Source of the DNA: Xanthobacteraceae bacterium
Lineage (GTDB): Bacteria > Pseudomonadota > Alphaproteobacteria > Rhizobiales > Xanthobacteraceae
NCBI GenBank assembly: GCA_035574295.1
Contig: DATLYX010000125.1
Coordinates: 1-32,000 of the forward strand
Length of the DNA: 32,000 bases
Direction: 5' to 3'
Part shown: piece by piece, positions 21,505 through 32,000 of the stretch
Layout: each line of letters opens with the position of its first letter
Position numbering within the stretch: the first letter of the stretch is position 1
Program-made: the position numbers and the translations under genes
Notes under the pieces: generated by a model
Databases searched by the model: none
What the model was told of the DNA's origin: nothing
The model's input: only the letters and a program-made list of their open reading frames with translations

Positions 21505-21529
21505 TCTCGACGCAATGCAGGACGGCTGC

Positions 21530-21559
21530 GGCCCGCCTCCCCGGCGGGCCTTTTCGTTT
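21530..21559 (+). terminator. Rho-independent terminator-like hairpin inside the lysis cassette
   Basis: GGCCCGCC (21530-21537), loop TCCCC, GGCGGGCC (21543-21550), followed by TTTTCGTTT (21551-21559). Confidence 0.5.
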
Positions 21560-21571
21560 GGAGGACCACCC

Positions 21572-22261
21572 ATGACCCCGAAATGGTACCAGATCGCGAT
21601 GGCCGAGCTCGGCCAGCAGGAGTTCGCCGGCACCGCGCACAATCCGCGGATCGTCGAGTATCACCAGGCGACCGGGCTCCGCGCCGAGGACGATGAGATG
21701 CCCTGGTGCGGCGCCTTCGTCGCCTGGTGCCTCGGCGCGGCGGGTATCCCCTACGACAAGGCGTCGGCAGCCTCGGCACGCGCGTGGCTCGATTGGGGAC
21801 GCGCGCTCGAACACCCGACCATCGGTTGCGTGGTGGTGTTCTGGCGCGGGCGCCGCGACGGCTGGCAGGGCCATGTCGGCTTCTATGCAGGACGCGATGC
21901 GCAGGGTCGCATCCTGGTGCTCGGCGGCAATCAGGGCAACGCGGTGAGCGTGCGCCCGTACTCCGCCGATCAGCTCCTCGGCTATCGCTGGCCCGCGAGC
22001 GTGCCGCTGCCGCCAGACATTCAGCCCCTGCGCCAATCGGGTGTCGTCCAGGGCAGCACTGTCGCCGCGGCAAGCGGCGCCGCGGTCGTTGCCGAGAACC
22101 TGCCGATGCTCGTGAGCGACCTCGAGCGCGCCGACGGCCATCTCCAGGCCGGTACGCTCTTCGGGGTCGTCATCGGCCTGCTGATCATCGCCGGCGCCGG
22201 TTGGGCGCTGTGGCAGCGCATCCGTGCCGCGCGCGAGCTGCGCGATGGAGTAGCGCCATGA
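21572..22261 (+). CDS. Peptidoglycan hydrolase (TIGR02594 / CHAP-NlpC-like family), endolysin candidate with C-terminal TM segment
   Basis: ATG at 21572 with a GGAGGA SD. WYQIAMAELGQQEFAGTAHNPRIVEYHQATGL...DEMPWCGAFVAWCL...GHVGFY...LGGNQGNAVS matches the TIGR02594 pattern. The C-terminus carries LFGVVIGLLIIAGAGWALW. Confidence 0.8.
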   Translation: MTPKWYQIAMAELGQQEFAGTAHNPRIVEYHQATGLRAEDDEMPWCGAFVAWCLGAAGIPYDKASAASARAWLDWGRALEHPTIGCVVVFWRGRRDGWQGHVGFYAGRDAQGRILVLGGNQGNAVSVRPYSADQLLGYRWPASVPLPPDIQPLRQSGVVQGSTVAAASGAAVVAENLPMLVSDLERADGHLQAGTLFGVVIGLLIIAGAGWALWQRIRAARELRDGVAP

Positions 22262-22503
22262 TCTCCTGGATTCTCTCGCCTGCCTGGGTGCGACGGCTCG
22301 GTCTCTGGATAGGCGCCGTCATCGCAGCCCTTGCGGCCGTCGTCGCCATCCGCCGGTCCGGCGAGCGCGCCGGCCGCCTCGAGGAACGCCTCAACCAACA
22401 GAAGGAAATCGCCGATGCCGAACGTCGGATGCTGGATGCCGCGCGCGATCGCCCTCGTGATCGCGACGAGCTTGCTCGCCGCCTGCGCGACGGCTCGTTC
22501 TGA
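22258..22503 (+). CDS. i-spanin-like protein
   Basis: The ATG at 22258 overlaps the endolysin stop (ATGA). The product is 81 aa with an N-terminal TM (LGLWIGAVIAALAAVVAI) followed by a charged coiled-coil region. The rest of track ORF 21706-22503 is an off-frame artefact. Confidence 0.55.
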   Translation: MISWILSPAWVRRLGLWIGAVIAALAAVVAIRRSGERAGRLEERLNQQKEIADAERRMLDAARDRPRDRDELARRLRDGSF

Positions 22504-22669
22504 CCGGCCCGCCGGCGTCGTCTGCCCGCCGGTCCCCGTCTACAGCAAACCATTCCTCAAACGCGCCGCCGACGAGCTCGACCGCCTGCCGTCGGGATCG
22601 GCGATCGAGCAGATGCTCGCCGACTATCAGGTCATGCGGGACCAGGCGCGGACGTGCCGGCGAGATTAG
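22415..22669 (+). CDS. o-spanin-like lipoprotein, overlapping the i-spanin gene in another frame
   Basis: ATG at 22415 with AAGGAA 7 nt upstream; an alternative ATG lies at 22436. The signal peptide has the lipobox SLLAAC. The short mature part is Pro/Cys-containing. It overlaps the 3' end of the i-spanin gene (overlapped spanin architecture). Confidence 0.6.
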   Translation: MPNVGCWMPRAIALVIATSLLAACATARSDRPAGVVCPPVPVYSKPFLKRAADELDRLPSGSAIEQMLADYQVMRDQARTCRRD

Positions 22670-22700
22670 GGCTTGATGGCATAAAAGGTGGCCTTCGCTG

Positions 22701-23525
22701 CTATGCCCTTGGTGGCATGCGGGCCGCATCCAGCCGGCGATGAATGAGGGATGCCAGAGACAAGAGATCCTCGGCATCGGCCTTGTTCATGACCCAATGG
22801 ATGCGAGGGGCATGCGCTGTCGGGTTCCGGAACATTCCGAAGACGCCCTTGACGAGGTTGGCGAAACCGCGCTGTTCGCCCCGCTCGCTCTCGGAGCTGA
22901 GATCGTTGATCGCCAGCATTGGAAGATCGCCGCCGAGAGCACGATCGACGAGAACGGCTCCGTCGTCAGCGAGGCCAGTGCGGGCGCGCAGCTTGTCAGC
23001 GATGCTCTTGGTCGCCTCCAGGACCGCATGAAAATAATCGTCTGCCACCAGCTCAGCTCGACAGAAACGCAGCACGTCCGGGTGGACGCCGCGCGCGGTC
23101 AGGTCATCCTTCAGTTCCTGGGCCCGGCGCTCAGCCTCTGAGAGCGTTCGCGCCCGCTCGGCCGAACTCAGTGTCCCGGCGGCGTCGACGGCGAGCCCGG
23201 CAAATGAGAGCGCACGATTGAGGTTGGTGCGCATCGGCTCGAAGCGCTCGGGACAGCGGGCATAGCGCTCAGGCTTCATGGCATGGCGGATGAACGCCAG
23301 GATGGCCCGCCGATCTTGACGGCTGTTCTGGCTTTCTGCGAAGGCGTTAAAGAGGCGATGTCGCTTGGTCATATTCGGGGTCGGATCAGCCATACGGCAC
23401 GTCGCCAGGAGATGGGCGATTTCAGATCCGGTGAGGCCTTCGCTTGTGTCTGCGAGCGCTGCAGCAATGGCCTCGAGCTGGCTTTGAGTGAAGAGCGGCG
23501 GAACGTCGTTCACTTGCGATCCCAC
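22701..23525 (-). CDS. TIGR02391 (Hypoth_Ymh) domain protein, last gene of defence operon
   Basis: The C-terminal DDYFHAVLEATKSIADKLR...ERGEQRGFANLVKGVFGMFRNPTAHAPRIHW...DAEDLLSLASLIHRRLD is the TIGR02391 signature. The track start at 23777 overlaps the upstream gene in an Arg-rich junk frame. I prefer GTG 23525 (AAGGACGG upstream), or GTG 23513. Confidence 0.75.
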   Translation of the reverse strand: MGSQVNDVPPLFTQSQLEAIAAALADTSEGLTGSEIAHLLATCRMADPTPNMTKRHRLFNAFAESQNSRQDRRAILAFIRHAMKPERYARCPERFEPMRTNLNRALSFAGLAVDAAGTLSSAERARTLSEAERRAQELKDDLTARGVHPDVLRFCRAELVADDYFHAVLEATKSIADKLRARTGLADDGAVLVDRALGGDLPMLAINDLSSESERGEQRGFANLVKGVFGMFRNPTAHAPRIHWVMNKADAEDLLSLASLIHRRLDAARMPPRA

Positions 23526-23547
23526 TGGCAATCCGTCCTTGCCGGAC

Positions 23548-26500
23548 CTACGTCTTGAGCCGCAGGTCGGGGCTGACCTCCTCCAGCAGCCCGTTGATCG
23601 ATTCGACGGTCTCGGTGCTGATTTCCTGGCCGTCTCCCAACGTGACGGAGAGTTGGAACTGCAGGGGCACCCCAGCGGCCGCCTTGACGACGTCCGGCAG
23701 CACGTCGACCAGGTCTTGCAGCGCGGACGGCTCCAGGGCAGCCGAAGACGTATAGACGCCCTTCGGCTTCGGCACATACCCGCCTGGTTGAGGCTCCGCC
23801 ATTCCGCCCGGGGCGGCAGGCTGCTTCAGCATTACCGCCGAAGCGCCCGCCATATCGCATGGCCACGTGCCGCTCCCAGACGCGAGCTCAAGCCACCGGG
23901 CCTTGATCGCATCGTCGATGGCGCGCCGTAGGACCGTCCACGGAATGGGGTGGTCGGTCTGGGCAGACAACGCGACCGAAAGCGCAAGCGCCGTGGTTTG
24001 CCCATCTTTCCATGCGTCCGGCACCGCATCCTGCATCAGGCGGTTGACCGGCAGCGGCGGCATCGGTGCCCGCAGCTGGGCGGTCGCGGTCAGCACGCCG
24101 GAGGGTACCGGCTCGCCCTGGAAGCTTGCGGGTCCGTTCACGAGCCAGAGGATGCCCTGGCGGACAGCATCCGAGATCGCCGCCTCGACGGCCGCCCTCG
24201 GACAGGCCGGGATGACCACCGGCTCCTCATATCCCTCCCGCTGCACCATGACCGTCCGGCCGCCCGCAAAATAGGAGATCACGTCGGCGACGGTCACGGC
24301 GTCGCCGTTCCAGAGGCCCGGCAGGACACTGGGAGCTAGAACGCTCGGGTGGAGTTCGGACAGTGTCGCCTTTTCAGGCAGGAACACCTCGAGCGCCGGC
24401 TCCCTGCGCGCCGCCTCGTCAATCGGCGTGCGCCACCAGGTCCTGACCGACTTGTCGGGCCGGGTGAGCGACGCAACGAAAATGCCCGCCTGGACGCCCT
24501 GGTCGATGGTGTCGAGGATCTCCTTCTGGCGCAGCATCTTCGGCAGCTTCGGGTTCTCCGCGAACGCACTTACCAGGTCCTTCACGCGGCGTGACGGCTC
24601 GTCCTTGCGCCACAGGTCATAGGGCCCGCCCGGCAACATCGCCTCGGCGCTGATCGCGGTGTCCTGAATGCGCGAGCGCTTGTCCGCCTTGACGGTCGAG
24701 AACAGCGGCTCCGAGCCGACCGTGACCTTGAATGCGTGGATGTCGTTCTGCTCGTTGACGGTCACGACGATCGACCACGCCTGGCGGATCGCCTCCGGAA
24801 TCCGCCTGCGCGCCTCCTCGGTCCAACGGGCCAGCATTTCCTCCCGGATAGGATCCTGCGGCTGGTCCTTGAGCTGGCTGCGCACCTCCTCCCAGCCGAG
24901 ATATTCCCGAATCCGGGTGCGGACGGCGTCGAGGCCATCGCGCGACGGCGCAACCAGCACCACCGCATTGCGGTAGGTCCGCGGGCGGTCCGGTCCCGTC
25001 GTCTCATCGATGAAGCGCCGCGCTTCCGCGCTCGGCTTGCCCGAGTCCGAGACGGCCTTGGGACCGAGGATGGCGAAATGGAAATCCCCGTCGTTCTCGA
25101 TGTCGCGCGGCCGCTCGGGAAGCGTGTGGACGCGCGCACCGGCCGCCGCTGCCCCCTGCGTCAGGCTCTTCGTCTGCTGGACATCGGCCAGCAGCTTCAG
25201 CTCGATCGCTTCCGCCGTCACACGGTTGGCGCAGGCGTCGTGATGCATCTGCTTCAGGTTCGGCCGGTTGCCGAGTCGCCACGCCTTCGGCAGCGCCTTT
25301 GACTGGCCATTGTCCGCGACATCGCTCGCAAACTCGGCTTCGTCGAGGAACCAGGACAACTCTGTCCAGCGGCGCAGACCCTTCTCGAGTTCGATGCGGT
25401 CGGGGCGCGTCGCGCTCACCAGAGCGACGAGATCCGGCGTGCGCGCCTTCTGACCAATCGGCTGAGAGCTCAGGAACACCGCGCAGACGGCCTGCTCCAT
25501 CTCCCGGAACTTGAGCCCAGGCTGCTCCGTCTGGATCGCGCGCGCCTTGGCGAGCTCGCCTTCGAGGATCGCGGTCCACTCGTGCCCGCGGCCCTCGGTC
25601 ACTTCGCGCGTCGCGATGCCGGTCAGCTCGCGCGCCGCCTCGGCGATGCCCGTTTGCTCCGGCGCCGGCAGGAACACGTTCGGGCCGACCAGGGGCGAGC
25701 TGTCCCATTTCTCCGCGTCGCGCAGCGCCAGCGCGAATGTGCGCAGGATGCCGCGCGTGCGCTGGAAGCCGTCGAGCTGCGTCCAGCGCGTGTAGAAGAT
25801 GTCGGTAAGGTCGGGGTGGAAGGGATAGCTGCGGAGGAAGCGGTCCTCCGCGTTCTTCCTGTCTTTGCGCACCGTCTCATCGAGCTCGGCGATGTTCGCC
25901 ACCGCCGTCGTGACATGCGGCCGGAAGGACTCGGTGTCGGCGATCGACGCCGTCTCGAAGAAGCGGCGCCGCAGCACCTCGGCCACGTCCTCCTTCTGCA
26001 CCGGCTGGACACCTTCCTCCTTCTGGCGGTTGAAGATCTCGAAGATCTGGGCGATCAGCTCCTTGCCGAACGGATCGCTCTTCTCCGGGTCGGACGCGAG
26101 GAGCGAGGCGACCATGGCGCAGCGGTCGACCTTGGCGACGGCCTGGCAGAGGTACTGGAAGAAGTCGATCAGCCGGCCGCGCCAGACCTCGGCCATCGCC
26201 ACCTTCTCGCGGGCGTACATCAGCACCTCGTCGATGAGGACGAGGGTCGAGAGCCCTTCCGCTTGCGGCCTGGACAGCAGATCGACGAGCAGCGGCTCGG
26301 CAGGCGGCGTCTCCCGCTCCTCGCTCTTGCCGTCGGCATTGAGGGCGCGCAAGCCCTCATCGCCAGCAATCTGGAAGGCGAGCACGCTCCAAGGATGCTT
26401 GAGCCAGCGCATCTCGCCCTTGGGCCCGCGCACCTCCATGCCCTTTTCGACGTCGAGCTTGTCGAAGCTCAAGGCCACGACGCGCGCCTTCGGCAGCGGG

Positions 26501-26874
26501 GCGCCGATATGGGACTTGAACTGCTCGACCGCGGGCAGCGACGGAAGCGACGCTGGGTCGTGTACGAGGTGGCGCAGCGTCACCAGCGTGTGCGTCTTGC
26601 CGCCGCCATATGTGAGTTCCAGCTGGCGGATCGCCTTGGTGTTTCTGCCGGCAAGGCGCAGCACCACATCGCGCGCCAGCTCCCTCAGCGAGAAGGTCGG
26701 ATAGGTGAGCGCGAAGAACCGGGCCGGATCCTCATAGATCGGCCGTGCGCCCCTCTGCATCATCACGTCGTGCAGGTCGGCCGCGAAATCGGCGAGCGAC
26801 AGCGCGCCCGTGCGCACGTCCTCGCGCAGCTTCACCACGCCGTGCCAGGGAGTCCAGGGAAGTTTCGGTGCCAT
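23548..26874 (-). CDS. DUF499-family P-loop ATPase (about 1108 aa)
   Basis: The ATG at 26874 lies 1 nt after the methylase stop, with GGAGG at 26881-26885. Walker A LTYGGGKTH (GGGKT at 26593-26607) and Walker B LVLIDE (26227-26244) are present. The N-terminal WHGVVKLREDVRTGALSLADFAADL and the overall length are typical of DUF499 proteins. Confidence 0.85.
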   Translation of the reverse strand: MAPKLPWTPWHGVVKLREDVRTGALSLADFAADLHDVMMQRGARPIYEDPARFFALTYPTFSLRELARDVVLRLAGRNTKAIRQLELTYGGGKTHTLVTLRHLVHDPASLPSLPAVEQFKSHIGAPLPKARVVALSFDKLDVEKGMEVRGPKGEMRWLKHPWSVLAFQIAGDEGLRALNADGKSEERETPPAEPLLVDLLSRPQAEGLSTLVLIDEVLMYAREKVAMAEVWRGRLIDFFQYLCQAVAKVDRCAMVASLLASDPEKSDPFGKELIAQIFEIFNRQKEEGVQPVQKEDVAEVLRRRFFETASIADTESFRPHVTTAVANIAELDETVRKDRKNAEDRFLRSYPFHPDLTDIFYTRWTQLDGFQRTRGILRTFALALRDAEKWDSSPLVGPNVFLPAPEQTGIAEAARELTGIATREVTEGRGHEWTAILEGELAKARAIQTEQPGLKFREMEQAVCAVFLSSQPIGQKARTPDLVALVSATRPDRIELEKGLRRWTELSWFLDEAEFASDVADNGQSKALPKAWRLGNRPNLKQMHHDACANRVTAEAIELKLLADVQQTKSLTQGAAAAGARVHTLPERPRDIENDGDFHFAILGPKAVSDSGKPSAEARRFIDETTGPDRPRTYRNAVVLVAPSRDGLDAVRTRIREYLGWEEVRSQLKDQPQDPIREEMLARWTEEARRRIPEAIRQAWSIVVTVNEQNDIHAFKVTVGSEPLFSTVKADKRSRIQDTAISAEAMLPGGPYDLWRKDEPSRRVKDLVSAFAENPKLPKMLRQKEILDTIDQGVQAGIFVASLTRPDKSVRTWWRTPIDEAARREPALEVFLPEKATLSELHPSVLAPSVLPGLWNGDAVTVADVISYFAGGRTVMVQREGYEEPVVIPACPRAAVEAAISDAVRQGILWLVNGPASFQGEPVPSGVLTATAQLRAPMPPLPVNRLMQDAVPDAWKDGQTTALALSVALSAQTDHPIPWTVLRRAIDDAIKARWLELASGSGTWPCDMAGASAVMLKQPAAPGGMAEPQPGGYVPKPKGVYTSSAALEPSALQDLVDVLPDVVKAAAGVPLQFQLSVTLGDGQEISTETVESINGLLEEVSPDLRLKT

Positions 26875-26875
26875 G

Positions 26876-29800
26876 TCAGACCTCCATGGCCGTCTGCCGC
26901 GGCGCTGAGATGCCGCCGCGCGAGGCAATGTGGTTGGAGAGGGATTCCAGGATCGCGCGCTCCTCGGAGCCTGCCGGGGCCAGCTCGATCAGCGCCTGCA
27001 GGACTTTCGCGAACAGCGCGTTGCGCTTGAGCCCGCGCGAATCCAGGTAGTCATCGACCTTCGCCTCGTCGCCGGCGCGCCAGAGATGCATCAGCCGGTG
27101 CGCCTGGTCGATCAGCGGCACCGGGCGACCGCCCGGACCCTCAAAGCCCAGCCATTTGGCCTTGCGCTGGTGCCAGGGCTTCAGCTTGACCTTGTTTCCT
27201 TTGCCGCCGGAATCGCTGTCGGCGTCCTCGGCGTCGGTGTCGCTGTCCTCCTCGGCGTCCTCGGCACCGTCCAGATCGTCGAAGAGCGTGCCGCCGGTGC
27301 GCGAGAGGATGTCGAAGCGGTCGGCGAGATCGCTGTCCGAAAGGTTGCACGACAGCGCATAGAGGATGCAGGCGCCGATCGGCGCATCGTCGAGTCCGAA
27401 GTCGTTCCGGTGCAGGAGGTAGTAGGTGGTGATGTCGTCGAGGCCGCTCGCCATCTCGGCATCGCCGTTGTGCGAAAGGACCCGCCCCACCACGAAATCG
27501 ACCACGATCCGGCGCACCTCGCGCAGGAATTCCGAAACGGTCATGACCGCGCCGGGATCGTCGGCCTTCTTGACGACTGGGTATTTCGAGAAGGCTTCGA
27601 GTGCCGGTCCTGTTGCCGCCCAGACGAAGTCCGGCCCGCGGATGCCGGCATCCCAAAAGGCGCGGAGCTGGGTGTGGATGCGCTCGCGCATCTCGGCGAG
27701 GACCGCAGTGTCCCAGCCCGGCCGGGCGGCGGGGCGCTTCTTGCAGACGAGCCAGACGGAGGAGGCGAGCGCAGCGGATGCAAGCGACCGCGTGCGAACC
27801 TGCCGCTCAGTCTGGATGGGCCAGGAACCATCTACAACGAAGCCGGCGCGAATAAGGGCGGCAACTAGAGTCTCCCATGCATCTGGCTGTTTATTTGCGA
27901 ACACGACGACAAGACGGCCACTTGGCACCAGGGCCGTGTGACAAGCTTGGAACGCCCGCGCCATTCCGTTCTCGTAATTTGCCTTAGAGCGCGCCTTGTC
28001 GCCCTCAAAGCGACTGGCATCATCGATCAGTTCGCCGTCATCTGCCTCTCGGTCCCACTTAGGGCCGAGAGGAGAGTTGAACGCACCGTCTAAGGAGCCG
28101 TTGCTGGCTCCAACAGAGCGTCGCAGCCAGATGTAGAAGAAGTCCATCAAGTCGGAATAGGGGATGGCGTCGTAATAGGGCGGGTCGGTGATGATCGCGT
28201 CGTAACCTGTAAGACTATTTTCGATCGCCGACTTTCTCAGGATTGTCGGTTGAGAAGTCGTCGATGATGCGCGCGATGTGTGATCGAATACCTCTCCTAT
28301 CCACTCAATGGCCTGAACAAATCCACCAGATGAATCTACGAAGGGATTTCCTTCGGCGAAGTCCCAAGTTATCGGCAGAGCAAAGCGAGCAAAGCTATTG
28401 CGAAGCTTCTCCGGGTCGTTCTGCCATGTCGTGATTTGACTGCCACGGTCAGCAGCCCTATCCAAAGCACATGCAAGGCTGGCAACCAGCGCTTCCGACC
28501 ACGGCTGGGGAAACGAATTCGCTGTCGCAGCGTCCACCAGGGAGCGAATAACGAGCGCGAATGTCCCAAGCGAGACCAGCTGCCGATCCGTGAACAGCTT
28601 GGCCCACTGGTCGAAGCCGTAGCCGTCAACGGAGAATGCACGCGCCGCGCCGCTGCCTCCCTTCGGCGTCGGCTCCGTCGGCAGGCCGAACGGAATGCCG
28701 GCGTACAACGCATCGAGCTCGGCATTCGACACCTCGGCGGCGCGAAGCTCTTCGGCGGTTGGCAGCCGATACTCCTTGCCGTTCGGCCCATCGACGACCA
28801 CCGCCGTCATCACCGCGCCGAGCCGGCCGGCGCGCCCCTCAAGCCGGATGTCCTCCATCGTCATGATCGTCGGGCAGCAGGGGCATTGTGCGCCGGAGCG
28901 GCTCATGGTGCCGGCGCCCCGGCGCTTATCGTGCTCGCGCCGTTGCGCGGCGTTGCCGCCGACGAGCGGCACGTTGTTCTCAATGCCGAAGACGACGCCG
29001 GTCCGGTCGGCGTTCGGCGTCATGGTCAGCAGCACCCGCTTGTTGTCCTTCTTGGCGAGCCAGCGGGTCTTGAGCAGCGGAATGGTCGCGCGGCAGCCCT
29101 TGCAGCGCACCGTGCGCGCCCAGAGATAGGCCACCGTCGGCTTCGCCACCCAGCGCGGGTTGCGCGGATCGTTGAGATAGGCCCTGGCATAGCCCGCGTT
29201 GAGCGGCGCGACATCGACATTGCCGTCCGCGTCCGGCTCCAGCAGCTGAAGGGGCTGCGGCTCGAACGGCTTGTCGCCGGGCTCGAGCGGCTGGAACTCG
29301 GCATAGGTCGGATAGCGGTGGGCGAGCTTCCGGCGCGCTTGGGCAAGGACCCAGCGGCCCCAGGCACGCACCTGCCAGGCGAGATCGGCTTCGAGCAGCG
29401 GGTCGTGGGCGATCAGCTCGGGCTCCGCCTCCGTCCCATCCTCATCGAGGCCGAGTTTTGCGAGCTGGCGCTTCAGCGCCGCACCCTTGAAGCCTTTCGC
29501 CTTCAGGAAGGACTCCATGAAATCGCGGTCCTTGAGCGCGAAGTCCGGCAGCGGGCGGGTTTGCCCCGCGAGCTTCTGCGGGTATTCCAGCGTGCATTTC
29601 AGGATGAACCAGGCGACCGGGTTGATGTCGATCGCCGTCACCTCGCAGCCCAGGCGCATGGCCTCGAGCGGGATCGCGCCGCCGCCCGCGAAGGGATCGA
29701 GCACCTTCGGCGCGCGCCCGCCATAGGATTCGCGGATCTTTTCCCGGAACCAGTCGAGATCGGGGCCGCTCTCCCGCCCCCAATGCAGAATTCCGCCCTC

Positions 29801-30091
29801 CGTCTCGCGCTTGCGGACCTCGACCGTCCGCCCGCCGACCTTCTTCTGCTCGATCCTCTCCTTCACCGTGCCGGCAAGCCGCCGATAGATCGCCTTGCGC
29901 TCCTCCGCCTCGCCGGGATCGGGCAAGAGCGTGGCGATCAGCGCCGCGCGGCTTGCCGCGAGCGGCCGCCGCGCCGGCCAGATGTGCAGCGTCGAGATAT
30001 GCCCATGCCGGACGTTCTTCTCATGCACCGAGTCGAGCGACACCTGCTCCAGGGGGAAGTCGACTTCGATGAGGCGTTTATCGTTCGGCAT
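26876..30091 (-). CDS. DUF1156-domain DNA amino-methyltransferase with zinc ribbon (about 1071 aa)
   Basis: The true start is the ATG at 30091 (MPNDKRLIEVDFPLEQVSLDSVHEKNVRHGHISTLHIWPARRP, the DUF1156 N-terminus), 2 nt after the DUF3800 stop. Motif I DPFAGGG is at 29678-29698 (aa 132). Zinc ribbon CKGC is at 29093-29104 and CPCC at 28874-28885. Motif IV DPPY is at 28175-28186 (aa 636). The track extension to 30436 is an artefact. Confidence 0.9.
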   Translation of the reverse strand: MPNDKRLIEVDFPLEQVSLDSVHEKNVRHGHISTLHIWPARRPLAASRAALIATLLPDPGEAEERKAIYRRLAGTVKERIEQKKVGGRTVEVRKRETEGGILHWGRESGPDLDWFREKIRESYGGRAPKVLDPFAGGGAIPLEAMRLGCEVTAIDINPVAWFILKCTLEYPQKLAGQTRPLPDFALKDRDFMESFLKAKGFKGAALKRQLAKLGLDEDGTEAEPELIAHDPLLEADLAWQVRAWGRWVLAQARRKLAHRYPTYAEFQPLEPGDKPFEPQPLQLLEPDADGNVDVAPLNAGYARAYLNDPRNPRWVAKPTVAYLWARTVRCKGCRATIPLLKTRWLAKKDNKRVLLTMTPNADRTGVVFGIENNVPLVGGNAAQRREHDKRRGAGTMSRSGAQCPCCPTIMTMEDIRLEGRAGRLGAVMTAVVVDGPNGKEYRLPTAEELRAAEVSNAELDALYAGIPFGLPTEPTPKGGSGAARAFSVDGYGFDQWAKLFTDRQLVSLGTFALVIRSLVDAATANSFPQPWSEALVASLACALDRAADRGSQITTWQNDPEKLRNSFARFALPITWDFAEGNPFVDSSGGFVQAIEWIGEVFDHTSRASSTTSQPTILRKSAIENSLTGYDAIITDPPYYDAIPYSDLMDFFYIWLRRSVGASNGSLDGAFNSPLGPKWDREADDGELIDDASRFEGDKARSKANYENGMARAFQACHTALVPSGRLVVVFANKQPDAWETLVAALIRAGFVVDGSWPIQTERQVRTRSLASAALASSVWLVCKKRPAARPGWDTAVLAEMRERIHTQLRAFWDAGIRGPDFVWAATGPALEAFSKYPVVKKADDPGAVMTVSEFLREVRRIVVDFVVGRVLSHNGDAEMASGLDDITTYYLLHRNDFGLDDAPIGACILYALSCNLSDSDLADRFDILSRTGGTLFDDLDGAEDAEEDSDTDAEDADSDSGGKGNKVKLKPWHQRKAKWLGFEGPGGRPVPLIDQAHRLMHLWRAGDEAKVDDYLDSRGLKRNALFAKVLQALIELAPAGSEERAILESLSNHIASRGGISAPRQTAMEV

Positions 30092-30093
30092 AA

Positions 30094-30921
30094 TTATTTT
30101 CCCAAAGACATGAGCGAAGCCGGCGCGATCGAATTGAACCATCGCGAGGAGGCTCCATTCTGTTTTGCCGGCCAGCGGCAGCTGCGAGGAAGGAGCCTGC
30201 TTGCCAGGATGGCTACGTATTCTTCGATCAGCGCTTGCTCGCCCGCCCATTCCTCGGGTTTCTCGAAGTCCTTCATCTCGGCGTAGCGTCGAAATATGAA
30301 TGCGAACAGATCGGCGACCTGAACCAATCCCGCGTGGTGAGACTTGATGCTGAAGGTCGTATCCACGATCTGGTCCAGCCGGCCCTGCTTCTTTTGCCTG
30401 TCGTAATAGTCGTCGGTCCACTCCGGGGGCTGCCACAACAGATCGCTCAGCGCGTCTGCCTTCACTTTGTTGTCGTCAAAGATCAGGAACGTGTGCCCCT
30501 TATTCTTGTCCTTGTTTTGATGGGACTTTTGAATCTGTAAGGCAATATGCAGGCCTCCCGCTAGCCAATCATCGCGGCATTGCTTCGGAACGTCGGCAGT
30601 ATCATCCTTCTTCAGCTTGCTTCGGTCGATTGCTGAGAGCGCAAGGTAATGCTTGCGATCACCGATCCACTTGCAAAGATGGCCGGCAATCTTCTTGCGA
30701 ACTTCCGGATCGACCTTCCGCCAGCGGTCCCGGCCGAAGATCATCTTTGAGCCCTTAAGCTCTCGCAGGTTCTCTTCGAAAAGTCTCTGAACGTCGTCGA
30801 AAATCTCGGCGAATTCCTCCCGCGTCCGGTTCAGGCGATAGGCATCAACAAGGACCCCGACCATGACAAGGCAGGGATCCTGGGGGCTGTTGCCGCTCTC
30901 ATCGACGTAGCAGATTTTCAT
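30094..30921 (-). CDS. DUF3800-domain protein
   Basis: 275 aa. The N-terminal MKICYVDESGN and later HHAGLVQVADLFAFIFRR match the DUF3800 pattern. The ATG lies 7 nt after the helicase stop, and the stop lies 2 nt before the methylase ATG. GC content is visibly lower than in the neighbours. Confidence 0.8.
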   Translation of the reverse strand: MKICYVDESGNSPQDPCLVMVGVLVDAYRLNRTREEFAEIFDDVQRLFEENLRELKGSKMIFGRDRWRKVDPEVRKKIAGHLCKWIGDRKHYLALSAIDRSKLKKDDTADVPKQCRDDWLAGGLHIALQIQKSHQNKDKNKGHTFLIFDDNKVKADALSDLLWQPPEWTDDYYDRQKKQGRLDQIVDTTFSIKSHHAGLVQVADLFAFIFRRYAEMKDFEKPEEWAGEQALIEEYVAILASRLLPRSCRWPAKQNGASSRWFNSIAPASLMSLGK

Positions 30922-30928
30922 GTGCCCC

Positions 30929-32000
30929 TCAGTCAGTGGCTGCCATCAAGATTTCGGTCTCGGCGATCAGGACGCTGCCTTTGGCCTTGGCCAACAGCTT
31001 TCCAAACGGGTCCTGCACCTTCACGAGACGCGGTCGCGGCGTGGCGCAGTCGAAGGCGACGTAGAGCCAGTATCGGCCGCGCAGATTGCAGGCCTTCGCC
31101 CATTCGTTTTCGCTGACCTCCACGCCGCCGGCCCCGGCGCAGCCCTTGACCTCGATGGCACGCTCCTCCGCCGGGCCGTGCGGGGTGGCAGGCCGCAGCG
31201 AGCGGAGATCGAATCCGGGCCAGTCGGTGAGGCCTGCGGCGCGCGCGAGCTCGGGCCGCGACACGTCATGGACAGTGGCGCCGGCCGCCTCTTCGTGTGC
31301 GCGCGCAAGCCGTATGGCGATGGCCTCCACCTCGGCGTCGTGCCGCCGCCGCTCCTCCGGATCGTCGGTGGGAAGAACAAGCGCGTGCGCCACCATCTCC
31401 GCTTCGCCCGGAACGATCAGGGCCGGCTCCATCTTCAGCAGCTTTAGCCGCCGCTCCTTCTCGGCAGCGAGCTGGCGCTGCTGCTCCCTGACCCTGGTGA
31501 GCTCGGCCTTCGCATGGGGATCGCCCTGGCGGGCCGCTTCGCTCACGCGCTGCCGCTTGGCGATCAGCTCGGCCGTCTTGTGGTCATAGCCGCGGGTGAT
31601 CCAATCGAGCCGCTCCGGCAGGGTGTTTTCAATGCGCGCCCGGTGCTCCTCCACCATGTGGGCAAGTGCATCGCCCTTGATCCATTCGGCGGCGGCGTCC
31701 GTCAGCCCTCGCGCAAGCCGGGCGAGCGGCACGCTGCCGGGAGGCACGCCATGCGCACCCCGCAGCAGGAGCAAGTGCTCCAGCGGACAAAGAGCGATCG
31801 TGCCGTCGCTTTCCTGTCTCAGGCCGATCAGGCGGCTCTCGATGATCTCCGAGCGGACGCTGTCCTGACGCCCAAAGTGATCCTCGAAGAGCTCGACGGC
31901 CTCTGTGGCCGGCTGGCGGCGGACGACCGATACCTGGGCGAGATGGAAGAGATAGGGTGCCTTGGCGTGAGAGTCGACGAAGATCGCGCCGCGACGCGCC
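30929..32000 (-). CDS. C-terminal part of a large helicase-related protein ending in a DUF3883 (PD-(D/E)xK-like) domain; 5' end beyond window
   Basis: My own translation shows the frame stays open from 31999 down through the track ORF (ARRGAIFVDSHAKAPYLFHLAQVS...LEHLLLLRGAHG...), so the TTG at 31774 is not the start. The C-terminus GFDLRSL...AIEVKGCAGAGGVEVSENEWAKACNLRGRYWLYVAFDC is the DUF3883 signature. The helicase core itself is not in the window, so it is inferred. Confidence 0.75.
   Translation of the reverse strand, partial: ARRGAIFVDSHAKAPYLFHLAQVSVVRRQPATEAVELFEDHFGRQDSVRSEIIESRLIGLRQESDGTIALCPLEHLLLLRGAHGVPPGSVPLARLARGLTDAAAEWIKGDALAHMVEEHRARIENTLPERLDWITRGYDHKTAELIAKRQRVSEAARQGDPHAKAELTRVREQQRQLAAEKERRLKLLKMEPALIVPGEAEMVAHALVLPTDDPEERRRHDAEVEAIAIRLARAHEEAAGATVHDVSRPELARAAGLTDWPGFDLRSLRPATPHGPAEERAIEVKGCAGAGGVEVSENEWAKACNLRGRYWLYVAFDCATPRPRLVKVQDPFGKLLAKAKGSVLIAETEILMAATD

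Follow-up and report, generated by a model that had tools for sequence, protein, structure and literature searches.

The locus described here raises the question of whether five closely packed genes of a Xanthobacteraceae bacterium encode a defence system of a new kind or a known system that carries additional genes. The genes lie on the minus strand at the end of a stretch of 32,000 nucleotides (nt) of contig DATLYX010000125.1 (assembly GCA_035574295.1), which is referred to below as the window. An earlier interpretation made from the letters alone (the sequence-only reading) had proposed one conserved, uncharacterised anti-phage cassette that discriminates self from non-self by methylation. 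Three of the genes were found to be hmaA, hmaB and hmaC, the core of the already named Hma (helicase-methylase-ATPase) anti-phage system, and the other two, a DUF3800 gene lodged between hmaA and hmaB and a TIGR02391 (Ymh-HEPN) gene trailing hmaC, are mobile passengers. The locus is a known kind of system with a partly uncatalogued cargo combination and not a new system, and its five genes very probably form one transcription unit composed of the Hma core and two separable accessory nuclease genes.

In the order of transcription, the operon comprises the 3' part of hmaA (30929-32000; 356 codons, open at the window edge, the remaining 5' ~850 codons lying outside the window), the DUF3800 gene (30094-30921; 275 amino acids, aa), hmaB (26876-30091; a DUF1156 methyltransferase), hmaC (23548-26874; a DUF499 ATPase) and the Ymh-HEPN gene (22701-23525). 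Sequence inspection gave junctions of 7, 2, 1 and 22 nt and a GGAGG before the ATG of hmaC. These five co-directional minus-strand open reading frames (ORFs), with their coordinates and junction lengths, were recovered by ORF listing and translation exactly as the sequence-only reading had described them; its motif positions in HmaA, HmaB and HmaC agreed with the translations, and the families it had named (NOV_C/DUF3883, DUF3800, DUF1156, DUF499 and Hypoth_Ymh/TIGR02391) were all matched by Pfam. Guanine-plus-cytosine (GC) content at third codon positions (GC3) is 0.70-0.87 across the five genes, which indicates that all of them are coding. For the last gene an alternative start, GTG at 23513, is equally plausible, since most of its homologues are 266-270 aa long. 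Promoter and terminator scans of 22200-32000 were uninformative for a genome of 67% GC: the former returned 0 sites, and the terminator-like sites did not exceed the number expected from shuffling.

Identity of the core genes

Profile searches were performed with the 5027 models of PADLOC-DB v2.0.0. The hmaA fragment matched HmaA (E-value 5.1e-10) and Pfam NOV_C (3.6e-11, at aa 225-320), its helicase part lying beyond the window; HmaB matched PDLC00661 (1.2e-118), PDLC00660 (1.9e-114) and Pfam DUF1156 (4.5e-18); and HmaC matched PDLC00662 (1.1e-71, over aa 8-799) and Pfam DUF499 (3.5e-21). Three relatives, L084, L102 and L104 (numbers from L002 to L182 are labels of the relative loci or contigs compared with the window), encode 1204-aa proteins whose C-termini share 91-94% identity with the fragment, and the full-length protein of L104 matched HmaA (1.1e-162) far better than the DrmD models (2e-92). 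HmaA of the relatives combines HTH_3, SNF2, Helicase_C and NOV_C domains (Pfam). PADLOC requires of Hma that its genes share a strand and that no more than three genes be embedded between any two neighbouring ones; in the window one gene lies within hmaA-hmaB and none within hmaB-hmaC.

The name Hma dates from 2021, when it was given to a candidate system present in 26 phyla (Payne 2021, PMC8565338). HmaA of Halomonas meridiana protects E. coli against T4, for which its C-terminal PD-(D/E)xK nickase activity is required (Liu 2024, PMC11232893), and anti-phage protection by Hma has so far been demonstrated only for this protein and this phage (PMC11232893). The same operons were re-described in 2026 as Type-1 DUF499-centred BREX-related (BR) systems, in which the ATPase, methylase and helicase are homologous to their Type-3 BREX counterparts (NAR 2026, PMC12839542). 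As in Type-1 BR systems, the helicase of the window carries an active-type PD-(D/E)xK site at its C-terminus (D264...E283-V-K285 within NOV_C), and no Pfam match to DUF3780 or PLD/HKD was found in the five window proteins or in the full loci L082 and L084. The sequence-only reading was right to see a defence operon of a methylase, a large ATPase and a helicase-nuclease, related to BREX and DISARM, but what it took for an unnamed and uncharacterised system matches HmaA, HmaB and HmaC of PADLOC, and this three-gene core is already known, and partly characterised, as Hma or Type-1 BR (PMC8565338, PMC11232893, PMC12839542).

With Hma as described, the locus shares the same three genes in the same order and on one strand, the NOV_C PD-(D/E)xK end of HmaA (joined to a Snf2 helicase in the relatives), and the presence of genes embedded among the hma genes. 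It differs in that its cargo is a DUF3800 gene and not Septu, GmrSD, an ABC-ATPase or similar, in that a Ymh-HEPN gene trails the core, and in that this alphaproteobacterial locus adjoins a prophage. With Type-1 BR systems it shares the tripartite core (DUF499 AAA+ ATPase, DUF1156 N6-methyltransferase, Swi2/Snf2 helicase with PD-(D/E)xK), the lack of DUF3780 and the placement of auxiliary nucleases within or beside the locus. In contrast to them, HmaC of the window has no Pfam domain besides DUF499 and hence no N-terminal HEPN, a fusion present in many Type-1 BR ATPases (1370 of 2446 Type-1 BR taxa), and its embedded nuclease, predicted to have an RNase H fold, falls outside the seven auxiliary nuclease superfamilies listed for BREX and BR systems, a survey in which neither RNase H nor DUF3800 is mentioned (PMC12839542).

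Type 3 BREX (BrxC, BrxXI/PglXI, BrxHII, PglZ) has a homologous ATPase, methylase and helicase and the same 'sense-modify-restrict' architecture, reminiscent of restriction-modification (RM). The window locus differs from it by lacking PglZ, BrxA and BrxB, by the DUF1156 N-terminus of its methylase and by a helicase with a nuclease of its own; HmaB matched PglX|PglXI at only 1.3e-8, and full-length HmaA of L104 matched BrxHI at 2.8e-92 and BrxHII at 7.3e-74. Membership of BREX was rejected, as no PglZ domain was found in the five proteins or in the complete relatives L082 and L089, and so was membership of DISARM, as no protein with DUF1998, the domain of DrmB, was found in the locus or its relatives. 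The NCBIfam equivalogs for anti-phage-associated DUF1156 (NF042963) and DUF499 (NF042962) proteins were rejected as well, with 162.3 and 85.7 bits against cut-offs of 1000 and 1200; these models describe a different DUF1156/DUF499 lineage.

Conservation of the operon and its insertion slots

A scan of one genome per species yielded 80 loci with HmaB relatives of 57-80% identity, from many phyla, and these were searched with the five window proteins by tblastn. The three hma genes were found in nearly all of the 80 loci, with synteny. The DUF3800 gene was found in two (L002, and a truncated copy in L027) and the Ymh-HEPN gene in one (L071), where it stands directly upstream of hmaB and not after hmaC. 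The gap between hmaA and hmaB exceeds 1 kilobase (kb) in 66 of 76 loci and that between hmaB and hmaC in 42 of 73, and among 70 loci not one lacks inserts. The space between hmaA and hmaB serves as a slot for cargo. Published surveys place embedded genes in 62.7% of Hma loci, many of them independent defence systems (bioRxiv 10.1101/2024.01.29.577857), or in 66.5% (PMC11232893). The position after hmaC is also variable, being taken in related loci by housekeeping genes, a DpnII/MboI-type restriction endonuclease domain, a PLD-like protein or a helicase.

The full five-gene order is confined to close alphaproteobacterial relatives and is a lineage trait. A metagenome contig of 176.7 kb (L084) carries the same five genes at 86-98% protein identity, with the same prophage neighbours; L082 and L083 carry them at 74-90% identity together with a sixth gene, HEC-07, between hmaA and the DUF3800 gene; and L102-L105 show hmaA-DUF3800-hmaB-hmaC as far as the contig or flank extends. 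The single conserved cassette of the sequence-only reading does not hold up outside this narrow lineage, where co-occurrence breaks down and both additional genes have other partners.

HEC-07 (4.5e-201), one of nine Hma-embedded candidates chosen elsewhere for testing (bioRxiv 10.1101/2024.01.29.577857), fills the hmaA-hmaB slot in L082 (3979-5607) and also in L014, L054, L067, L083 and L106, and lies directly upstream of the DUF3800 gene in L082/L083 and L106. Its insertion implies that the slot is still in use as a landing pad. The DUF3800 gene resembles the candidates HEC-01 to HEC-09 and PDC, proposed by 'guilt by embedding', in being co-oriented with and nested among hma genes and in occurring also in other RM-type operons and outside them, but its family matches none of their PADLOC models.

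The DUF3800 gene

The product of the DUF3800 gene matched Pfam DUF3800 (PF12686; 1.5e-14), and no match was found in PADLOC-DB v2.0.0 (including the HEC and PDC models), NCBIfam or PHROGs, nor at E<=1 in a sequence search of PDB chains. The gene is the strongest compositional outlier of the window, with a GC content of 0.551 against 0.65-0.68 for the hma genes and a background of 0.65-0.69 (GC3 0.70). Its family numbers 315 proteins at E<=1e-5; the 120 relatives listed are 57-100% identical to it and nearly all close to 275 aa. Within the family D7 and E8 are at least 90% conserved, and D149, Q201 and D204 are invariant (DE...D...QxxD). The AlphaFold2 model (pLDDT 88, pTM 0.91) gave top Foldseek matches in the PDB that were all RNase HII, H2 or H3 (best E 1.7e-4, TM 0.43-0.53), and on this model the protein is predicted to be an RNase H2-like nuclease.

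DUF3800 proteins of retron type VII and Cas12a2 loci had earlier been modelled likewise as RNase H2-like (PMC7736814, PMC10910872). The window protein has in common with the DUF3800 proteins of retron type VII and of Cas12a2/Cas12a3/Cas13 loci (PMC7736814, PMC10910872, PMC12669027) the Pfam family, the RNase H2-like fold, the N-terminal DE motif and the association with defence. Unlike them it is a stand-alone protein of 275 aa with QxxD intact and without TPR or reverse transcriptase fusion. Neither an associated reverse transcriptase nor a CRISPR array was detected with the gene. The RNA motifs associated with DUF3800 (DUF3800-I to -XI) gave no Rfam match in the whole window at gathering thresholds and none at E<=5 in 22000-32000; the intergenic space flanking the gene amounts to 7 and 2 nt.

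Genomic contexts were surveyed in 79 loci of the family drawn from metagenomes, of which ~54 had identifiable neighbours, the rest lying on contigs that were too short. The gene was found in Hma in 25 of the 79 loci, always in the hmaA-hmaB slot and usually a few nt from hmaB, and these hosts include Hma cores that are only 32-44% identical. In 17 loci it stands between the methylase and the restriction subunit of a Type III system, alongside a DrmD-like Snf2 protein or an AAA_15 ATPase; one or two loci place it in Type I operons, after HsdM-HsdS, and in ~10 its neighbours are recombinases, Cas1 or ordinary genes. A neighbour-joining tree puts the main Type III clade and the Type I member within Hma-embedded lineages, so that several changes of host operon have taken place. 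The gene is a mobile passenger that markedly prefers operons of the restriction type.

Two further arrangements were noted in the course of the survey. A recurrent four-gene operon (L113, L114, L117, L122 and L125; e.g. L113 174-10182) holds the DUF3800 gene in third place, after a DrmD-like Snf2 gene (DrmD 5.6e-179) and a Type III methylase gene of 1000-1127 aa and before a Type III restriction subunit of 1066-1081 aa; in L152 and L153 the order is AAA_15 - DUF3800 - methylase - Res. In L088 (7579-8828, Rhodothalassiaceae) the last ~120 codons of an hmaA (70% identical to aa 237-356 of the window fragment) stand unfused to any other sequence and are followed by the DUF3800 gene and a serine recombinase/resolvase; this is a piece of an Hma locus that has decayed or been transposed.

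The same contexts bear on the possibility that the DUF3800 protein is not an autonomous passenger at all, but a dedicated helper of restriction-type machines, which would, for example, clear away RNA:DNA hybrids or R-loops in the path of translocating helicase-nucleases that they block, or process what these nucleases produce. Such a role would suit the RNase H2-like fold, the company that DUF3800 domains keep with nucleic-acid-guided systems (retron type VII, Cas12a2/a3 and Cas13 loci) and the position of ~44 of the ~54 loci with identifiable neighbours inside Hma, Type III or Type I operons, sharing the host genes' orientation. However, some members occur singly, next to recombinases, transposases, Cas1 or ordinary genes, and the three types of host operon have no common partner except a methylase and a helicase. 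The helper role is a rather unlikely alternative to that of a semi-autonomous passenger.

The Ymh-HEPN gene

The product of the last gene matched Pfam Hypoth_Ymh (PF09509; 2.3e-40), NCBIfam TIGR02391 (1.9e-41), Aga_HEPN (4.1e-15) and, over positions 5-264 of a profile of 270, PADLOC PD-Lambda-3_B (PDLC03987; 6.1e-83). It contains RNPTAH at aa 233-238, a HEPN motif of the type Rx4-6H/RNxxxH, in which R233, N234 and H238 are invariant in 29 homologues. An earlier classification counts Ymh/PF09509 among the active HEPN families and notes it 'in operon with R-M' (PMC3710099), and by its motif the protein is predicted to be a Ymh-family HEPN RNase. Foldseek of its two-domain model gave no significant PDB match, so that the HEPN fold is not confirmed at the level of structure; this is probably because the model has a pTM of 0.54. 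A sequence search of PDB chains returned nothing at E<=1. With a GC content of 0.632 and a GC3 of 0.71, the gene is a milder compositional outlier than the DUF3800 gene.

PD-lambda-3 is a two-gene abortive-infection (Abi) system (Vassallo et al. 2022), employed as an Abi control in PMC13190303, where infected cells lyse yet spread no phage. The gene of the window is a full-length match to its protein B and keeps the HEPN RNxxxH, but protein A is missing and its upstream place is taken by hmaC. The presence of a complete PD-lambda-3 was rejected, as no PD-Lambda-3_A match was found in the four upstream genes and hmaC ends 22 nt before the gene. True PD-Lambda-3_A proteins have ~159 aa, and an intact pair is found on a Klebsiella plasmid (A 2e-78, B 4.9e-179).

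The family of this gene is large (3061 matches). In the loci that were examined (L093, L096, L098, L181 and L182) the family gene is consistently last in order and its upstream partner varies: a Fic protein (PDC-S04-like) in Sinorhizobium, an AbiJ-like protein (AbiJ_NTD3+Abi_C) in soil contigs, a 619-aa protein without Pfam or PADLOC match in Nitrospirillum, a 778-aa gene of an Agrobacterium Ti plasmid that bears the annotation 'type I restriction endonuclease', and the true PD-Lambda-3_A. The loci usually lie in defence islands, beside Hachiman, Gabija-like or ABC-three-component genes. The gene is a mobile passenger and not a conserved part of Hma.

A closer bond between this gene and its neighbour is conceivable, in which the Ymh-HEPN protein is coupled to HmaC and supplies in trans the suicide RNase that is otherwise fused to it as an N-terminal HEPN, leaving the DUF3800 gene as the only independent passenger. 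HmaC of the window has no HEPN domain of any kind, the HEPN-DUF499 fusion is found in those 1370 of 2446 Type-1 BR taxa (PMC12839542), the hmaC-Ymh pair is kept at 90-98% identity in L082-L087, and the family always follows closely behind a variable upstream partner, like a module for different sensors. Yet the fused HEPN belongs to the Abi2/Swt1 family and not to Ymh (PMC3710099), all but one of the related loci with a HEPN-less HmaC are without a Ymh gene, and in that of L071 the gene precedes hmaB instead of following hmaC; the slot after hmaC holds unrelated genes elsewhere, and the structural model of the protein has no PDB match. On balance such a coupling is unlikely.

Core proteins and proposed mechanism

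The PD-(D/E)xK domain of HmaA (NOV_C/DUF3883) extends over 31040..31327 on the minus strand, with D264 at 31210-31208 and E283-V-K285 at 31153-31145, followed by YWLYV. At the other end of the protein, most related loci of this Hma clade encode an XRE-type helix-turn-helix domain (Pfam HTH_3; L104 2378-5992), and where full-length hmaA of related loci was alignable, this N-terminal region aligns in most cases; the 2026 survey describes a TUDOR domain at the N-terminus of these helicases (PMC12839542).

HmaB contains DPFAGGG, its SAM motif I, at aa 132-138, a zinc ribbon formed by CKGC (aa 330-333) and CPCC (aa 403-406), and DPPY at aa 636-639. Because DPPY is its motif IV, it is predicted to be an amino-methyltransferase, acting most likely on N6-adenine. 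The literature is at odds on this point: HmaB is called an 'm5c methyltransferase' in PMC8565338, and the DPPY motif (28175-28186 of the window) and the 2026 survey point to N6-adenine. A hypervariable module of hmaB (27842..28744, minus strand; aa ~450-750) is 32-68% identical to relatives between flanks that are 90-100% identical, and GC3 falls across it from ~0.85 to 0.56-0.68. This block is probably the target-recognition region and looks like the product of allelic exchange of a target-recognition module; the local drop in identity fits a swapped recognition module and lends support to sequence-specific marking.

HmaC, with Walker A GGGKT at aa 90-94 and Walker B LVLIDE at aa 211-216, is an ORC/Cdc6-like AAA+ ATPase.

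This analysis establishes what the five genes are, that the cargo of Hma varies, that both passengers are mobile, and which motifs and which modelled fold are present, and on this basis a mechanism may be proposed, of which methylation-based self-marking, the division of labour between the proteins and the substrates and triggers of the passengers are the conjectural parts. HmaB, as a DPPY amino-methyltransferase with a swappable recognition module, would mark host DNA; HmaC, as an ORC/Cdc6-like AAA+ ATPase, would assemble or license a scanning complex; and HmaA, as a Snf2 translocase with a PD-(D/E)xK nickase, would damage invading DNA that is unmarked. The DUF3800 protein would most likely act as a nuclease of the second line, semi-autonomous and expressed together with the operon that houses it, and the Ymh-HEPN protein most likely as a last-resort RNase layer acting by abortive infection. 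Reading the passengers as additional layers fits the multi-layer model put forward for BREX/BR auxiliary effectors (PMC12839542). HmaA alone can defend, by means of its helicase and nickase domains (PMC11232893), and the helicase-nuclease is the likely effector, as the sequence-only reading had held; the homologous nickase domain of Halomonas HmaA is essential for defence against T4 (PMC11232893).

One system or a core with passengers

Several observations weigh against a simple core with independent passengers and against the mechanism proposed for it. Three or more other contigs keep the five-gene order with its tight junctions, the proteins being 74-98% identical, and a functional integration of the five genes within this alphaproteobacterial lineage is possible. 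About half of the retrievable members of the DUF3800 subfamily are found in Hma, usually a few nt from hmaB, a share that implies something more specific than random hitch-hiking. The only published test of protection by HmaB, in which T4 was passaged through a host carrying HmaB, was negative (PMC11232893); discrimination of self from non-self by methylation, which the sequence-only reading had proposed, is plausible, but was overstated in view of this result. The 5' part of hmaA and the promoter lie beyond the window edge.

The most far-reaching reading is a lineage-specific, three-layer form of Hma, in which the helicase-nickase would be followed by an RNase H-like DUF3800 nuclease and by a suicide Ymh-HEPN RNase that is fired in trans by the HEPN-less HmaC. 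Such an arrangement is considered doubtful.

An integrated and unrecognised methylation-associated system of all five genes, with DUF3800 and/or the helicase-nuclease as effectors and the TIGR02391 protein as a dedicated component, is improbable to a greater degree. In its favour, the genes are separated by 1-22 nt, which suggests that they are co-transcribed and translationally coupled, and their order is kept in L084 and L082/L083. The core, however, is already named and partly characterised; the DUF3800 gene is missing from 78 and the Ymh-HEPN gene from 79 of the 80 related Hma loci; both occur with unrelated partners; the DUF3800 gene is of foreign composition; and in L082 the same slot has also taken up HEC-07, another unrelated gene. 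A core with two separable accessory genes is preferred.

Genomic neighbourhood of the operon

From position 1 to ~22600 the window is occupied on the plus strand by a prophage morphogenesis and lysis module, which is convergent with the defence operon. It encodes a terminase gpA, a lambda-family portal, an S49 protease, capsid E, a tail tube, a tape measure, a DUF2460 protein, a tail protein of the GTA_TIM/Rcc01698 type (1314 aa) and a CHAP lysin (21515-22261). Alignment of the window with L084, L087 and L086 places the probable junction between prophage and chromosome at ~22600 (22600..22700). The prophage-free L086 shares sequence with the window only as far as ~100 nt past the stop of the Ymh-HEPN gene (L086 2701-2800), and continues into PNP_UDP_1 and LytB genes. 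These ~100 nt are 3'-terminal coding sequence on both sides: of the PNP_UDP_1 gene in L086, and of a small phage-family ORF (22331-22669, phrog_26778) in the window. At the same position L082 has a different phage-like lysis module (Peptidase_M15_3), which suggests that the position beside the operon is an integration hotspot. No tRNA that could serve as an integration target was found in the window.

That the operon is 'moron' cargo of this prophage is very improbable and was rejected: although structural and lysis genes fill 1 to ~22600 and end ~100 nt from the Ymh-HEPN gene, the same prophage genes flank L084 and L085 and a different phage-like lysis module L082, and the Ymh-HEPN protein matches phrog_6297, L086 has hmaC and the Ymh-HEPN gene at 92-98% identity directly before PNP_UDP_1 and LytB without any prophage, similarity ends at ~22600, the operon is convergent with the prophage genes, and in relatives a further defence gene, ietA, lies beyond hmaA. 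Since L086 has the hmaC-Ymh pair without a prophage, the operon is chromosomal and the prophage merely its neighbour. A homologue of ietA (7e-157; ietAS defence system) was seen divergently upstream of hmaA in L104 (865-2112, minus strand), L002 and L105. As relatives carry ietA beyond hmaA, the operon probably lies in a small defence island.

Implications for Hma and its passengers

Near-identical hmaB alleles that differ in one module of ~300 aa are suited to mapping the choice of target by the Hma methylase, and the locus offers a natural comparison for PD-lambda-3, in the form of a protein B homologue without its A partner. The DUF3800 family recurs in three kinds of restriction-type operon and lies outside both PADLOC-DB v2 and the 2026 catalogue of auxiliary nucleases; being compact, it is a cheap and well-defined 'guilt-by-embedding' candidate and a possible route to the function of DUF3800. 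If the three-layer form of Hma were true, the DUF3800 protein may represent a new class of RNase H-like accessory nuclease specific to restriction operons, which would have moved among Hma, Type III and Type I systems because it cooperates with translocating restriction motors, RNA:DNA hybrids being one example of what it might act on.

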